From assembly GCA_013003325.1 (NCBI GenBank), contig JABDJU010000151.1, positions 1-31,231 of the forward strand: DNA of 31,231 nt, in the 5' to 3' direction. Each line of letters opens with the position of its first letter. The stretch's first letter is position 1. The translations under genes were made by a program, and so were the position numbers. Shown one piece after another: positions 6,105 to 12,330 of the stretch. The stretch comes from Acidimicrobiales bacterium (GTDB lineage Bacteria; Actinomycetota; Acidimicrobiia; Acidimicrobiales; SZUA-35). Under the pieces are notes generated by a model. That model did not search any database and was not told the DNA's origin. It saw only the letters and a program-made list of their open reading frames with translations.

Positions 6105-6665
6105 TCAGCCGGTGGACTGGGCCATCGTCATGGCATGACGAACCAGGGCTACCAGAGTGTCGCGGACCGCAGCCCGATGCCGGGCATCGGTCACAACCAC
6201 CGGGATGTGGCGGGGCAGGTCGAGCGCCTCGCGAACATCTTCGGGGTGGTGGCGAAGCATCCCGTCGAATGCGTTGATGGCCACGATGAAAGGAACGCCT
6301 GCGTTCTCCATGTAGTCGATCGCCGGGAAGCATTGATCGATTCGGCCGGTGTCAACCAAGACGCAGGCACCGATGGCGCCGCGGACGAGCTCGTCCCACA
6401 TGAAGTGGAATCGGTCCTGACCCGGTGTACCGAACAGATACAGCACCAGCTCTGGGCTGAGTCCGACGCGTCCGAAGTCCATCGCGACAGTGGTCGACTT
6501 CTTGCCGGTGGCATCACCCCAATCGTCGACGCCCTCGGAGACTTTCGTCATCGCAGCCTCGGTTGTCAGTGGATCGATGTCGGAGATTGCTGTGACGAAG
6601 GTCGTCTTGCCGACGGCGAATCCGCCTGCGACCACGATCTTTACTGGGATTGGATTTGCACTCAT
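6105..6665 (-). CDS. Conservon small GTPase (CvnD-type ATP/GTP-binding protein, MglA-related)
   Basis: KIVVAGGFAVGKTT (P-loop), TTVAMDFG, LFGTPGQDRF and DAR; last gene of the four-gene operon; start ATG 6665. Confidence 0.92.
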   Translation of the reverse strand: MSANPIPVKIVVAGGFAVGKTTFVTAISDIDPLTTEAAMTKVSEGVDDWGDATGKKSTTVAMDFGRVGLSPELVLYLFGTPGQDRFHFMWDELVRGAIGACVLVDTGRIDQCFPAIDYMENAGVPFIVAINAFDGMLRHHPEDVREALDLPRHIPVVVTDARHRAAVRDTLVALVRHAMTMAQSTG

Positions 6666-6675
6666 GTCATCAACC

Positions 6676-7041
6676 TCAGAGGGATTGCAGGCCATCGAGG
6701 ACCCGCTCCAGCAACTGGAGGTCGGGTCGATCGGCGGATTCGGCGGTCGCAGTATGGGTGGCGAGATAGCCAGCGTGGACAAGGTCTCCGACCAGCACCT
6801 TCGAGACTTGAAGATGTAGCCGGAGGTGGGCAGAGATTTCGGCGATCGAGAGTGGTTGGTGGCAGATGTCGACGATCTGGCGAGGTTCGAGATTCAGCGT
6901 CCCGACCGCCTTTTGACCCTCAGGTGTCACCCTGATGATCGCCTCCAAGGGCAGTTCTACGGCACTGCGCGTCCGACCCCCGGTCACCATGTAGGGCCGC
7001 ACGCGGACCCCTTGTAGTGCATCGGGTTCGGGACTTGTCAT
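6676..7041 (-). CDS. DUF742 protein (CvnC-type)
   Basis: VRPYMVTGGRT, SIAEISAHLRL...KVLVGDL and LLERVLDGLQSL; ATGA overlap with the roadblock gene. Confidence 0.9.
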   Translation of the reverse strand: MTSPEPDALQGVRVRPYMVTGGRTRSAVELPLEAIIRVTPEGQKAVGTLNLEPRQIVDICHQPLSIAEISAHLRLHLQVSKVLVGDLVHAGYLATHTATAESADRPDLQLLERVLDGLQSL

Positions 7042-7460
7042 CGCGGAAGTGCCGCCTGCAGTTCTGCTCGGAGGGCCGGGGTGAGCACGGCGCCGGTCTT
7101 TTCAACGAGCACGGCCATTTCGTAGGCGACCATCCCGACATCACAGGCTGCTGCCGCTTTCACGGCGAGGAGCGAGCCATCGCTGATGCCGGTCACAAAG
7201 AGGAACGCATGCTCCATCTCGACGATCACCTCGGTCACAGCACCGCCGCCGAACCGACCGGCTGCACCGTAGGCAAGACCGATCAGACCTGACGAGACGG
7301 CCGAGAACCGGTCGACGCCGTCTCGATCGAGCCCCATCGAGGCAGCGATCGGCAGCCCGTCGCTGGACACAACGACCGCTTCGGTGACTCCGGGCACTCG
7401 CTCGACGAAGTTGTTCACCAACCAGTTGACGTTGTTTGCTTGATTGCTCAATCCGCTCAT
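7038..7460 (-). CDS. Roadblock/LC7 protein (CvnB-type, MglB-related)
   Basis: NWLVNNFVERVPGV..AVVVSSDGL and DVGMVAYEM..LV motifs; AGGAG Shine-Dalgarno. Confidence 0.92.
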   Translation of the reverse strand: MSGLSNQANNVNWLVNNFVERVPGVTEAVVVSSDGLPIAASMGLDRDGVDRFSAVSSGLIGLAYGAAGRFGGGAVTEVIVEMEHAFLFVTGISDGSLLAVKAAAACDVGMVAYEMAVLVEKTGAVLTPALRAELQAALPR

Positions 7461-7478
7461 GTGGATTCTCCTGATTGG

Positions 7479-9413
7479 CTAGTGGGGTCCGTCACCGGTT
7501 TCGGGACGACCTTTGAGTCCGTCCCGGTACCGAGCGAGCATGTTGCGAATCTCTTCGGGGCTGCGGTTGCTTGCTGCGGCCGCTGGTGCCGCCGCCGCGC
7601 TGGGGATCGTGCGCCCTTCACTGGCGGGAGCGTGGTTTCGGGCGCGATCTCTCCTGACCAGGCCCGAGTCGGTGCGATTGGCCGGTGAATCCAACAGCGC
7701 ATCGACACCCTGGTCGAATGCGGGGCCCGATGGCATCGCCTGAGCCATGCTTTCGGGGGGCTCTGAGTGATCGGGCGCGGCGGGGGGCGACCAGGCCTCA
7801 GCCGGCTGCTCGAACACCGCAGGTGACGGCTCGGGTGCGGGCGCCGGCTGGGGTGCCTGACTCGGCGCCGGGGTAGGCGGCGGGGTCCATGTCTGTGCCG
7901 GCGGCTCATGAATCGGTTGGGGGGTTGGCTGCTGGAATGCCTGAGGAATCTCCTGAGGAACAGGAGCCTGCCGCTGAGGAGCCGGAGCCGGCTGCTGGAA
8001 AGCCTGGGGAACCGGAGCCTGGCGCTGAGGAGCCGGAGCCGGCTGCTGGAATTCCTGGGGAACAGGAGCCTGCTGCTGAGCAGTCGGAGCCGGCTCGTCG
8101 GCCCAGGGGCTCTCCTGCTCGGAGGCGAAGGCTGGCGGTGCCTCGGGTTCGGGCGCCGGCGCGACGGGAGCGCTCTGGATCGGCTGCGGGACCGGTGCGG
8201 GCTGAGCGATCGGAGGGCCGGCACCAAGGGGATTCTGATGCGGCACGGCCGGCTGACTGATCGTGGGAGCGCTCGACGGCATCGACTGAAACGCGGCGGG
8301 CACATTTGCTGCGGCCCCGCTCGAGAGCGCTCCGCCCGGGATCTTGATCGAGGCGGTGGTGCCGCCGCCTTCGGTGTGGGAAAGATGAACCTGAACTTCG
8401 AGACGCTCTGCGAGGCGGCCGATCACCTGGAACCCGAGTGAACGGGTCAGGGCCAGCCCGAGTTCGGGCGGGTTGGCGATCGTTTCGTTGGCGACCTGCA
8501 GTTGCTCAGCGCTCATGCCGATGCCGCGATCCTGAACGATGATCTCGTAGTAGCCGCCGGCGTCGAAGTCGCCAGTCACCATGACCGGTGCGTCAGGGGG
8601 TGAGAACTGGGTGGCGTTCTCGAGGAGCTCGGACATGAGGTGGGCAACGTCGACGGCGCCCTGGGGGCCGATATGGGCGGTCTTGATGGCGCCCATCGTC
8701 ACGTGCTGGTAGTCCTCGATCTCACTCATCGCCACCCGGATGACATCGGCGAGTACAACCGGTCCGCCGCGTCGCCGGCTGGGCTCAGCACCGGCCAGGA
8801 CCAGAAGGCTCTCTGCGTTGCGGCGCATACGGGTGGCAAGGTGGTCGAGACGGAACAGGCTCTCGAGGCGGTCGGGATCCTCCTCGGTTGACTCGAGCGA
8901 GTCGATGCTCTCGATCTGCCGATCGAGAAGGCTCTGGTTCCGGCGAGCTAGGTTCACCACCAACTCGCTGATGCCTTCCTTCACCACGCGCTGCTGCTCG
9001 TTCGCAACGGTGACAGCGCGGTTCTGGAGGCTGTTGAGGGCTTCGCCGAGGTCGGCGAGCTCGGTCTGGCCACTGACTTCGAGCGGCTCGAAGTCGGGCA
9101 TCGCGATCCCAGGATTCGAGAGTGACTCGATGAGTTTCGGCAGTCGGATGTCAGCCAACTCGCGGGCGGCGTCGGACACCTCGTTGATCGGTTCGAGCAC
9201 TCGTCGGCCCACGGCCAGAAGAACCCCGACGCTCAAGAGCATTCCGGCGATCGCGACAACGCCCAGCGTCAGAGTGTCGGACTTCAACTCATCGACAGAG
9301 GGATCGCCAAGGAAGTACGTCGACAGACCGAACGCGGCGATGAACGCCAACAAGAGGATCGGCGGAATGGCGATCAGCGCCATTAGGTTTCTGAGATTGA
9401 GTTTCTTCGACAT
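7479..9413 (-). CDS. Conservon membrane sensor histidine kinase (CvnA-type) with Pro/Gln-rich C-terminal linker
   Basis: Two TM helices, HAMP-like region, LFRLDHLATRMRRNAE, ELLENATQFSPP, DRGIGM, GGGT; tail motifs TDSGLVRR and RSPEEIRNML. Confidence 0.92.
   Translation of the reverse strand: MSKKLNLRNLMALIAIPPILLLAFIAAFGLSTYFLGDPSVDELKSDTLTLGVVAIAGMLLSVGVLLAVGRRVLEPINEVSDAARELADIRLPKLIESLSNPGIAMPDFEPLEVSGQTELADLGEALNSLQNRAVTVANEQQRVVKEGISELVVNLARRNQSLLDRQIESIDSLESTEEDPDRLESLFRLDHLATRMRRNAESLLVLAGAEPSRRRGGPVVLADVIRVAMSEIEDYQHVTMGAIKTAHIGPQGAVDVAHLMSELLENATQFSPPDAPVMVTGDFDAGGYYEIIVQDRGIGMSAEQLQVANETIANPPELGLALTRSLGFQVIGRLAERLEVQVHLSHTEGGGTTASIKIPGGALSSGAAANVPAAFQSMPSSAPTISQPAVPHQNPLGAGPPIAQPAPVPQPIQSAPVAPAPEPEAPPAFASEQESPWADEPAPTAQQQAPVPQEFQQPAPAPQRQAPVPQAFQQPAPAPQRQAPVPQEIPQAFQQPTPQPIHEPPAQTWTPPPTPAPSQAPQPAPAPEPSPAVFEQPAEAWSPPAAPDHSEPPESMAQAMPSGPAFDQGVDALLDSPANRTDSGLVRRDRARNHAPASEGRTIPSAAAAPAAAASNRSPEEIRNMLARYRDGLKGRPETGDGPH
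7957..8080. repeat. 51-bp in-frame tandem repeat, about 2.4 copies (17-aa unit QAPVPQ(E/A)FQQPAPAPQR)
   Basis: Units start at 7957, 8008 and 8059 (ggaac[a/c]ggagcctg...). Confidence 0.9.
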
Positions 9414-9474
9414 GGGCCTCTCACACTTTGGATGTCTGATATTCAGTCGGCGCTGACGCCGCTTCCTTTAGTCC

Positions 9475-9488
9475 GAATCGATCGATTC
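9475..9488. promoter_or_regulatory. Perfect 14-bp palindrome GAATCGATCGATTC in the divergent kinase/DUF4388 intergenic region
   Basis: Self-complementary sequence read directly; function not established. Confidence 0.35.
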
Positions 9489-9551
9489 ATGAGATTCACC
9501 GATGGCAGGTGGGTGAACCGCCTTGCTGTTCGATTGGGGTAGCTTCTTGAG

Positions 9552-10247
9552 GTGATGTCCGCTTCACCTACCGAAGGCTCCCTGGAGGAGCAGGATCTGA
9601 GCGAACTCCTGCTCCAACTGGCCGAAAGCCGCTCCACCGGAGCACTGAGAATTAGCAACGGTGGAGCGGTCTGGATGTCCGAAGGCCGTATCTACCTCGC
9701 CCAATCAGCCCAGGGACCGCGAATCGCCGACGTTCTGTTCGGCGCCCACGTGGGCTCGCTCAGCGAGATCCACGCCGCCCTCAACGGGGCGGGAACCACA
9801 ACCGCCCTGGACAGCCTTTTGGCCCAGCACCCCGACCGGGCCCAGGTAATCGAGAGATTGATCCACGAATCGAACCTGACCGCTATGTTCGAACTGCTGG
9901 TTCCGAGCCAGGACCAGTACACCTTCGACGACGGTGCAACCCACCGATTGGGCGCCACCTTTGCCGAGCCGGCGGCGGCGTTGCTCGACCAGGCCCAACG
10001 CCGTTTGGAGATCTGGAAGCAGATCGCTCAACGAATCCCAAATACCTCGGTTCGATTCGGCCTCAACCCAGATCTGCCCGGAGACGAGCAGGTGATCACA
10101 AACGACGAGTGGCGTTACCTCTCCATGCTCGACGGCAACAACACCGTTGCCGATGTCATCGCCGAGACCGGTGACAGTGCCTTTCGTGTCTGTTCAGGGC
10201 TCTACCGCCTGTTGCTCGAAGATCTCATTCACGAAATCGTCGACTAA
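9552..10247 (+). CDS. DUF4388 (PATAN-like) domain protein
   Basis: GSLEEQDLSELLLQLAESRSTGALRI...G.VWMSEGRIYLA N-terminus; C-terminal EWRYL..LDG..TV.DVI...G...F.VC..LYRL; TAGCTT-6 nt-GTG. Confidence 0.8.
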   Translation: MMSASPTEGSLEEQDLSELLLQLAESRSTGALRISNGGAVWMSEGRIYLAQSAQGPRIADVLFGAHVGSLSEIHAALNGAGTTTALDSLLAQHPDRAQVIERLIHESNLTAMFELLVPSQDQYTFDDGATHRLGATFAEPAAALLDQAQRRLEIWKQIAQRIPNTSVRFGLNPDLPGDEQVITNDEWRYLSMLDGNNTVADVIAETGDSAFRVCSGLYRLLLEDLIHEIVD

Positions 10248-10305
10248 CTCTCGGCCCTTGTGGCAACCACTAACTTCCGACTCATCGCCGCCGACTGGCT
10301 CACCG

Positions 10306-10839
10306 ATGGCCACGGCACACAATCAGCAGGTCCCAACCGCTGTAGCTCTCGAGAAAGCGCGCCGCCGGGTCGGCTTCTCGGTGGAAGCCGCCGCCGACGA
10401 ATTGAATATCACCACCCGCCTGCTCGGCGATATCGAATCGGGCCTGCGGACACCGGGTCCGGATCTGATCGAGGCGATGGTGTCTCTGTACGGAGTGGAG
10501 CCGGGTCGCATCGAAGGCCGCGAGTTGGTTCCCCGTGTACCGGCCCGCTACGACGCCGAAAGCCACGTGCTCCAGATGGGTTGGACTTCGATCCAGATCA
10601 AAGAGAAGGACAACGACCACATCGCCCGCTCGCTCGCTGTGGCGCTGCGAGAAATGCGATCGCTCCCCGGCGACGGTCCGGTCGTGCTGCGCTCGACAGA
10701 GCTGGGATTGCTGGCCCCGCTCTTCGATTTGAGTGCACCGGATCTACCCGAGATCCTGACGAGGTATCTCAGGTTGACACCGAATGACGCGTTGAGCCTG
10801 GTCAACCAGATGGTCGTGCTCGACAGCGTTCACGGCTAA
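10306..10839 (+). CDS. XRE-family helix-turn-helix protein with an uncharacterised C-terminal domain
   Basis: LEKARRRVGFSVEAAADELNITTRLLGDIESGLRTP is an HTH_3-like motif; start ATG 10306. Confidence 0.8.
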   Translation: MATAHNQQVPTAVALEKARRRVGFSVEAAADELNITTRLLGDIESGLRTPGPDLIEAMVSLYGVEPGRIEGRELVPRVPARYDAESHVLQMGWTSIQIKEKDNDHIARSLAVALREMRSLPGDGPVVLRSTELGLLAPLFDLSAPDLPEILTRYLRLTPNDALSLVNQMVVLDSVHG

Positions 10840-10851
10840 ACGGCCGAGACC

Positions 10852-12330
10852 TCAGCCGAGGGGCCGGTCGGTTGGCGCGACCGGGCTGGGCAACAGCGTG
10901 TCCCCCATCAGTGCTCGGTCGACCGAGGCTGCGCAGGCCCGCCCCTCGGCGATGGCCCACACGATGAGACTCTGGCCGCGGCCCATGTCTCCGCAGGAAA
11001 AGACTCCCTCGACCGATGTGCGCCATGCGTCGTCGCGGGCGACGTTGCCGCGAGCGTCTAACCCGACGCCGAGGTCGTTGAGCAGTCCTCCCTGTTCAGG
11101 GCCGGTGAACCCCATCGCCAGGAGCACCAGATCGGCATCGAGTTCAAACTCAGAGCCCGGAACTGGCTCAAATGTCGGCCGGCCGTTCAGCACTGACGAC
11201 TCGACTTGGTTGCCGTGGAGCTTTTTGACCACCCCGTCGACCCCGGAGAAGTGGGTGGTGTTCACCGAGTACAGCCGCTCGCCTCCCTCTTCGTGGGCCG
11301 ATGTGACCTTGTAGACCAACGGAAACGTGGGCCACGGAGTGCGCTCGGATCGTGTGTCGGGGGGACGAGGCATGATCTCGAACTGGTGGACCGACGCTGC
11401 CCCCTGACGATGAGCGGTTCCCAGACAGTCGGCACCGGTGTCGCCTCCGCCGATGATGATCACATGCTTGCCCTCGGCGCTGATCGGGGGTTGAGCCAGG
11501 TCGCCCATTTGCACCCGATTGGCCGGCGGCAGGTACTCCATCGCTTGGTAGATACCGTCGAGTTCGCGACCGGGAACGGGCAGGTCGCGCCACTGGGTCG
11601 CTCCCCCGGCGAGCACCACCGCGTCGAATTCCTCCCGCAGCTCGTCGACCCCCACGCTGGTCGCCTCCCCGGCCGGACCGCCGACGTTGGCATTCACCCT
11701 GAACTCGGTGCCTTCGGCCGCCATCTAGTCCAGGCGGCGATCGATGACCCATTTTTCCATCTTGAACTCAGGGATTCCGTAGCGCAGGAGCCCACCGATC
11801 CGGTCGGCTCGTTCGAAGACGACAACCCGATGTCCAGCCCGGGTGAGCTGCTGGGCCAGGGCCAGGCCGGCAGGACCCGAACCGACCACGGCCACAGCCT
11901 TGCCGGTGACCTTCGAGGGCAGAACCGGTAGGACCCATCCTTCTTCGAAGGCTCGCTCGATGATCGTGACCTCGACCTGCTTGATCGTGACAGGATCTTC
12001 GGCGATTCCGACCACGCAGGCACCTTCGCAGGGCGCCGGGCACAGGCGGTCTGTGAACTCAGGGAAATTGTTGGTGGCGTGCAGTCGCTCGATGGCCAAC
12101 TTCCACTGGTCCCGGTACACGAGGTCATTCCAGTCGGGGATCAGGTTGCCCAATGGGCAGCCGTTGTTGCAGAAGGGGATGCCGCAGTCCATGCACCGGG
12201 ACGCCTGGAGCTTGAGCTCGTCCGGCCCGAAGTCTTCGTAGACCTCGTTCCAGTCCTTCAGGCGAACCGGCACCGGTCGGCGGGTCGGCGTGACCCGTTC
12301 GTGGGTCATGAATCCGGTCGGATCACCCAT
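10852..12330 (-). pseudogene. gltD: Glutamate synthase small subunit, interrupted by an in-frame TAG at codon 202 (pseudogene or sequence error)
   Basis: The two tracked ORFs are in one frame: [28 protein letters not shown] | GGGDTGADC, GDMGRGQSLIVWAI. Junction reads CTG GAC TAG ATG GCG. Confidence 0.88.

Follow-up and report, generated by a model that had tools for sequence, protein, structure and literature searches.

A stand-alone PATAN gene as a probable, apparently undescribed accessory of a conservon in Acidimicrobiia

RESULTS

Gene content of the conservon-PATAN locus

The locus presented here occupies positions 6105 to 10839 of a 31,231-nucleotide stretch of DNA (contig JABDJU010000151.1 of the Acidimicrobiales bacterium assembly GCA_013003325.1; the whole stretch is referred to as the window) and comprises the four genes of a conservon, cvnA to cvnD, a stand-alone gene encoding a DUF4388/PATAN protein (the PATAN gene), and an XRE-family helix-turn-helix (HTH) gene. 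The window is contig C336 of a metagenome-assembled genome of 2.9 Mb that is 81% complete. Close homologues carried the source label "Acidimicrobiales bacterium," and DNA matches to the locus came from beach-sand and sediment metagenomes, with none listed from RNA data. Genes were called from open reading frames (ORFs) and Pfam matches.

The conservon core was complete, with four co-directional genes on the minus strand in the order kinase, Roadblock, DUF742, and small GTPase. The first, cvnA (positions 7479 to 9413), was predicted to encode a kinase-like sensor protein with a HAMP domain at residues 68 to 132 and a HATPase_c domain at residues 255 to 359. It was followed by cvnB (7038 to 7460), coding for a Roadblock/LC7 (MglB-type) protein (PF03259 Robl_LC7, E = 2.1e-20) that was 66 to 98% identical across orthologous loci, and by cvnC (6676 to 7041), which overlapped cvnB by 4 nt and encoded a DUF742 protein (PF05331, E = 1.6e-29). 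A homologue of CvnC, MfpC, is reported to be a guanine nucleotide exchange factor (PMC11343762). The last gene, cvnD (6105 to 6665), was annotated as a small Ras-like GTPase (ATP_bind_1, E = 5.5e-26). Its open frame extended to a TTG at 6782, and the likely start was the ATG at 6665, which lay 10 nt past the cvnC stop with GAGG ahead of it; ortholog alignments of CvnD began around residue 40. Beyond cvnD lay a convergent GDPD gene.

On the plus strand, the PATAN gene (9552 to 10247; GTG start; PF14332) encoded a protein of 231 amino acids (aa) and was separated from the cvnA start at 9413 by a divergent intergenic region of 138 bp (9414 to 9551). The XRE gene (10306 to 10839, plus strand; 177 aa; Pfam HTH_31/HTH_3) was read from the ATG at 10306, 58 bp past the stop of the PATAN gene, to the stop at 10839, and its listed ORF began at a TTG at 10147 within the PATAN gene. 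ORFs, coordinates, and Pfam matches thus agreed with the original prediction, made from the sequence alone, of a stand-alone DUF4388 gene sharing a 138-bp divergent gap with the kinase gene and followed by an XRE gene. NCBIfam held no named family for the PATAN, XRE, CvnB, or CvnC proteins.

Within the genus, conserved blocks in the 138-bp region adjoined both start codons. A TAGCTT hexamer resembling a -10 element (9540 to 9545) ended 6 nt ahead of the PATAN GTG, a position that would fit a leaderless PATAN mRNA, and a genus-conserved GGGTGAACCGCC box lay upstream of the gene at 9511 to 9522. Matches to this box were not enriched in the window (4 found versus 5.9 expected). A sigma-70 consensus scan of the intergenic region returned no promoter, and no inverted repeat was found there.

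Conservation of the PATAN-cvnA pair

Full-length PATAN orthologs were found in 34 of 36 genomes from the window's family (f1) and also in two other families of the order, at 29 to 83% identity. Window proteins were mapped onto 33 ortholog loci with approximately 8 kb of flank on each side (family f1 plus genomes G051 and G059). The original prediction had proposed that adjacency of DUF4388 and conservon genes be examined across Acidimicrobiia, and the adjacency proved to be conserved: PATAN was divergent from cvnA in 33/33 loci, with gaps of approximately 65 to 220 bp and PATAN identities down to 30%, and the pair recurred with different flanks in distant lineages. The genes cvnB to cvnD were visible in 32 of the 33 loci; the contig of L040 stopped inside cvnA, and that of L065 stopped after cvnA. 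In four loci from two genera (L057, L058, L061, and L064), the flanking gltBD, ECH, and GDPD genes were missing and the five-gene block was intact.

More distant stand-alone relatives were sought among 1.8 billion representative sequences with a profile made from an alignment of 26 PATAN orthologs (A1). Three of these relatives from more distant Acidimicrobiia (P0157, P0176, and P0255) were encoded divergently from a full conservon. P0176, labelled "Acidimicrobiia bacterium," was 30% identical to the window PATAN, and P0157 and P0176 were flanked by unrelated genes (Peptidase_M18, H+-PPase, PGA_cap, and TrkH). The same divergent PATAN-cvnA pair was present in three genomes of another family in a class-wide sample (G419, G463, and G475).

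A second architecture was found on a 17-kb metagenomic contig, where two PATAN genes (258 and 229 aa) stood co-directionally ahead of cvnA (NIT-HAMP-HATPase), followed by cvnB, an uncalled gap of 280 bp at the place of cvnC, and cvnD. Over HAMP-HATPase, the kinase encoded there shared 47% identity with the window CvnA (E = 3e-77). The PATAN protein of the locus was 26% identical to that of the window; a shorter copy of the locus, L089, supplied the DNA. A single PATAN gene lay directly upstream of cvnA, also co-directionally, in G432, a genome of yet another family.

Both a PATAN ortholog and the orthologous conservon were missing from genome G027 (96% complete), where the best match to CvnB was 49% identical, compared to 83% in its congener G014. 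In G003, the conservon was at the very start of a contig and the PATAN position would fall beyond the contig end, and genome G008 was only 55% complete. Family genomes held one to six conservons each, and 13 paralogous conservons of the same genomes had no PATAN neighbor, including the second conservon of the window genome (contig C36, L068), whose kinase had a long extracytoplasmic region. The second PATAN gene of the window genome (contig C20, L131) encoded a protein without the alpha-clip described below, and neither a Roadblock nor a GTPase gene was found near it or its relatives. Whatever the flanks, the five genes stay together as a block in an Acidimicrobiales family and in several further lineages of Acidimicrobiia.

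Predicted fold and wider family of the PATAN protein

The PF14332 match (45.2 bits, compared to a cutoff of 25) covered the full model (positions 1 to 122) and residues 8 to 156 of the protein, i.e., 149 residues for 122 model positions. An AlphaFold2 model made with alignment A1 as input had a pLDDT of 94.6 and a pTM of 0.82. In the model, four helices inserted between strands of a beta-sheet core form the alpha-clip (residues ~58 to 115) described by Makarova et al. in 2006, and a long helix (141 to 161) leads to a C-terminal unit (~163 to 231) with a beta-alpha-beta-alpha-alpha-beta order that was the most conserved part of the protein. This unit aligned with winged-helix domains (VIA-align, Z of 7 to 9). 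Its top matches included winged helices from subunits of the GATOR1/SEA complexes and the peptide-binding RRE/PqqD domains, and MarR/AsnC-type regulators were also matched. VIA-align of the whole model matched the C-terminal winged helix only, with the N-terminal part not searched on its own, and a Foldseek search of the model against the PDB returned nothing at E <= 0.001. No REC, P450, or GAF match was found in the protein. A relationship of the winged helix to DUF742 was also considered and rejected, as a profile-profile comparison of PATAN with CvnC gave a probability of 0.4% and no homology was detected.

The last 70 residues of PATAN were acidic across the family (pI 4.1 to 5.0), and the window winged helix contained 4 lysines and arginines versus 13 aspartates and glutamates (pI 4.1). 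Separately, the C-terminal part of PATAN was basic in two outgroup loci with NIT-bearing kinases, L065 and L072 (pI 9.5 and 11.4), a rough comparison made over the last 70 aligned residues, since these fragments end earlier in the alignment.

Features of the CvnA kinase

At the N terminus of the window CvnA, two hydrophobic segments (read by eye) were separated by a loop of approximately 15 aa and followed by the HAMP domain from residue 68. Neither this protein nor its family orthologs had an extracytoplasmic sensor domain; in the paralogous conservons without PATAN, the kinase extracytoplasmic regions were approximately 300 aa long. Between the HATPase domain and a conserved C-terminal tail lay a Pro/Ala/Gln-rich linker of approximately 240 aa, within which ortholog alignments broke. 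The linker-coding DNA included a 51-nt tandem repeat (7952 to 8095; 2.8 copies, 89% matches) with a 17-aa Pro/Gln-rich unit.

[quoted passage not shown] The conserved tail of the window CvnA reads GLVRR...RSPEEIRNMLARYRDG, with GLVRR at the place of LPxR and GL[V/T/P][K/R]R followed by RSPEEIR.ML.RYR in orthologs. Compared to LPxR, the leucine and the final arginine were retained, and the proline was mostly valine in the window's family.

NIT domains were found in outgroup kinases linked to PATAN (G049, G051, and the contigs of P0157, P0176, and P0265), so PATAN is not confined to conservons with sensorless kinases. They were also found in the kinases of G039 and G045, which had no PATAN neighbor.

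The conservon adjoined the glutamate synthase genes gltBD across the order, an adjacency that hints at a nitrogen-related role. In several outgroup families (L065, L069, L072, and L140 compared), the kinase of this gltBD-adjacent conservon carried a NIT domain, which is a nitrate/nitrite-sensing domain; it has been lost throughout the window's family. In L070 (G045:C3, 4478 to 7529), the NIT-coding 5' part of cvnA did not share a frame with the HAMP/HATPase part, and this points to a frameshift or a sequencing error.

Related PATAN modules beside Roadblock and GTPase genes

The A1 profile retrieved 8,174 proteins at E <= 0.001, many of them long and with the whole 6-231 module at the N terminus. 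From 301 sampled genomes of the phylum, 40 homologue loci belonging to other families of Actinomycetota were fetched (genomes G061 and G108 enter only the tally of the phylum sample). The PATAN and winged-helix module adjoined a gene for a CvnD-like GTPase in 18 of the 40 loci; in 16 of these 18, it had one or two Roadblock genes on one side and the GTPase gene on the other. Neither a kinase nor a DUF742 gene was found in these trio loci (within L093 to L129). In a FastTree phylogeny of 71 GTPases, which included no reference sequences of Groups 1 to 5, trio GTPases formed a lineage separate from conservon GTPases, and the window CvnD grouped with other conservon CvnD proteins.

According to PMC4316618, PATAN adjoins MglA of Groups 1 and 5 only, and the neighborhood of Group 2 (conservon) GTPases consists of the four core genes. 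The trios found here are the MglB-PATAN-MglA neighborhood published earlier (Makarova 2006, as cited in PMC4316618), so the association of PATAN with MglA/MglB-type modules, mentioned in the original prediction, is on record and was reproduced in Actinomycetota.

A pilB gene adjoined 17 of the 18 trios, and a PilB- or CpaF-type gene was next to 12 of the remaining 22 PATAN genes, many of the solitary ones lying directly upstream of pilB. A pilus link was considered for the window locus as well and rejected, as no T2SSE gene was found within approximately 8 kb of any conservon-PATAN locus (L035 to L088). Five family genomes had T2SSE genes far from the PATAN gene, family genomes contained two PATAN genes only, neither of them near pilB, and a search of three genus-level genomes gave no full-length match of the PilB type.

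The XRE gene and gltD

The XRE gene was present in 18 of 32 assessable loci and not found in the other 14. It was on the PATAN strand, 58 to 120 bp downstream of PATAN, in 7 loci, all of the window's genus; in 11 loci outside the genus, it was on the opposite strand and co-directional with gltD, and it was never present where gltBD were missing. XRE behaves as a facultative neighbor, a spacer of variable occurrence between gltD and the PATAN gene, and not as a member of the module, and the original prediction's inclusion of XRE in the system did not hold.

In the window, gltD was interrupted by an in-frame TAG (11725 to 11727, minus strand). The corresponding codon encoded glutamine in 20 of 20 orthologous loci (CAG in 18 and CAA in 2), so the TAG reflects either one C-to-T change or an assembly error that this genome alone shows.

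DISCUSSION

PATAN as a proposed fifth conservon gene

Sequence comparisons make a functional tie between PATAN and the conservon very probable, because the pair exists in two architectures, persists while the flanks change, is missing as a whole from G027, and is specific to one conservon among paralogs and because the domain family is independently associated with Roadblock and GTPase genes. The locus is best described, with moderate confidence, as a five-gene variant of the conservon (actinobacterial G protein system, AGPS) in which cvnA to cvnD are joined by a lineage-specific PATAN accessory, a putative protein adaptor or effector that may act on the CvnB/CvnD switch. The PATAN gene is real and conserved, and it apparently represents an accessory, so far undescribed, of a signalling system that is itself known. 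Its place outside the conservon as so far described, which the original prediction had noted for Streptomyces, is borne out by the literature, in which the known accessories are CvnE and CvnF (PMC13343842). The word PATAN is absent from the 485-genome conservon survey, published in mBio in 2026 (PMC13343842), and a literature search with most subscription journals outside its coverage found no paper on both DUF4388 and the conservon; in the same search, with the same coverage, PATAN was not linked with DUF742 or CvnD beyond PMC4316618.

In the proposed mechanism, the PATAN protein would contact the Roadblock/GTPase switch (CvnB/CvnD) and, as an adaptor or effector, would read or position the GTPase. 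CvnB/CvnD is the tentative first choice of direct partner because the module elsewhere sits between Roadblock and GTPase genes; an action on CvnA resembling that of CvnF comes second. We infer that PATAN works by protein-protein contact and not by DNA binding, because its winged helix is acidic and because PATAN has been shown elsewhere to be a protein-binding output domain: in Synechocystis, this was established by experiment (bioRxiv 10.1101/2021.06.11.447907). A complex prediction for two copies of CvnB with CvnD and PATAN scored 0.01 against a mark of 0.32 and, run without controls, is evidence neither for nor against binding; the part of effector or localization partner that the original prediction suggested for DUF4388 thus stays hypothetical.

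A more specific form of the mechanism, in which CvnD in one of its nucleotide states would be bound by PATAN and the switch thereby linked to machinery in the cytoplasm (e.g., a positional landmark or a PilB/CpaF-type ATPase), is possible and, in that detail, rather unlikely. Such an effector or adaptor of CvnD would give the conservon a direct, nontranscriptional output and would tie kinase-driven conservons to the PATAN-linked trios of pilus control.

An alternative of similarly low probability places PATAN on the input side, as an accessory that would bind and modulate the kinase in the manner of the GAF protein CvnF8 and replace the lost sensor in the window's family. CvnE and CvnF accompany CvnA proteins without a sensor domain, and CvnF8 binds and stimulates CvnA8 (PMC13343842). 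The CvnA proteins of the window and its family are likewise sensorless, the PATAN-less paralogs have extracytoplasmic regions of approximately 300 aa, and PATAN shares a promoter region with cvnA or, in the co-directional version, stands directly ahead of it. The correlation is not strict, however, as the PATAN-linked kinases of G049, G051, and the contigs of P0157, P0176, and P0265 bear NIT domains, and, as shown by the Roadblock-PATAN-GTPase trios, which have no kinase, the module can work in the absence of any CvnA. These trios are the ground on which contact with CvnB/CvnD is placed first.

Several observations weigh against a functional tie and would suit an adjacency that is inherited synteny only, with PATAN serving a function unrelated to the conservon. 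The PATAN-linked CvnD proteins of the family formed one clade (support 0.97), and the family loci therefore represent one vertically inherited arrangement and not 33 independent events. The gltBD genes were also retained beside the pair, on the far side of PATAN, in most of the 33 loci, so plain synteny had to be excluded. In addition, conservons occur without PATAN in related families: G039 and G045, from two families of the same order, have an orthologous gltBD-adjacent conservon without it, three further families of the order have conservons without a PATAN neighbor, and in the class-wide sample, a PATAN match stood beside a conservon in only 4 of 33 other genomes with a DUF742 match. Yet the pair outlasts complete replacement of both flanks, a second, co-directional architecture exists, both partners are absent together in G027, and elsewhere the domain family is independently associated with Roadblock/GTPase pairs, which together make mere synteny improbable.

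It is equally improbable that PATAN serves the conservon as its transcriptional output, as a transcription factor whose winged helix would bind DNA, e.g., at gltBD or at the divergent promoter of the PATAN gene itself. Residues 163 to 231 do match MarR/AsnC/ArsR-type regulators (Z of 6 to 7), the locus adjoins gltBD across the order, and Makarova et al. reportedly predicted HTH domains in PATAN proteins in 2006. Against this stand the strongly acidic winged helix of the family, top structural matches that are protein- or peptide-binding winged helices (GATOR1/SEA and RRE/PqqD), and an intergenic region with neither an inverted repeat nor an enriched motif. In the Synechocystis study, DNA binding by PatA-type proteins is likewise deemed unlikely (bioRxiv 10.1101/2021.06.11.447907). 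The original prediction's proposal of the XRE protein as output or autoregulator is the least credible of all. The position of the gene 58 to 120 bp downstream of PATAN on the same strand would permit co-transcription in the window's genus, but no XRE gene was found in 14 of the 32 loci that could be assessed, the gene runs co-directionally with gltD on the opposite strand in 11, it never occurs where gltBD are absent, and no operator-like repeat was found in the intergenic region.

Comparison with known systems

Conservons occur widely across Actinomycetota, Streptomyces and mycobacteria among them, and their outputs, apart from MfpA, are largely obscure. If the five-gene description is right, the PATAN accessory would be a concrete, testable candidate for the means by which the GTPase switch is positioned or its state read. 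The system is also small, with five genes and soluble partners of 120 to 230 aa, which makes biochemical work practical.

One close comparison is with conservons that include CvnE or CvnF (Komatsu 2006, as cited; PMC13343842), which share the four core genes and their order with the window, have a fifth accessory gene that is likewise restricted to certain lineages and, like the window's family, possess a kinase without an extracytoplasmic sensor. In a survey of 485 actinobacterial genomes, CvnE (a P450) and CvnF (a GAF protein) were the only accessories named, were encoded after cvnD, and were found in large-genome clades (PMC13343842). The proposed accessory of the window differs in each of these respects: it is a PATAN and winged-helix protein, neither P450 nor GAF; it is encoded upstream of cvnA, divergently or co-directionally, and not downstream of cvnD; and it occurs in small-genome Acidimicrobiia, whereas CvnE and CvnF are reported only from large-genome clades. 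In some lineages, it also accompanies NIT-bearing kinases. Both described accessory types appear to act on the kinase, and PATAN would be a third type. The mycobacterial Mfp conservon likewise has an extra adjacent gene, and its product, MfpA, is the effector of the GTPase (PMC4316618), a precedent for an output encoded at the locus.

The PatA-type response regulators of cyanobacteria (PATAN-REC; PatA, PixG, and PixE) share the PATAN domain with its alpha-clip, and in these proteins, the PATAN domain alone binds PilB1 and PilC (bioRxiv 10.1101/2021.06.11.447907). The window PATAN, in contrast, has no receiver domain, its C terminus being a winged helix, and neither a chemotaxis-like system nor an adjacent pilus gene goes with it.

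The Roadblock-PATAN-GTPase trios contain a homologous module of PATAN, alpha-clip, and winged helix (profile residues 6 to 231, E of 1e-30 to 1e-39), encoded, as in the window, alongside a Roadblock protein and a GTPase of the ATP_bind_1/Ras type. They differ in that the trio PATAN protein is long (350 to 1,400 aa) and encoded co-directionally between its partner genes, whereas the window PATAN diverges from a kinase-led operon with DUF742; the trios also lack the kinase and DUF742, have GTPases of a separate clade, and are linked to pilB, unlike the window locus. A PATAN-conservon, if confirmed as such, would join two classes that were kept apart by Wuichet and Sogaard-Andersen, namely, the Group 2 conservons and PATAN beside other MglA groups.

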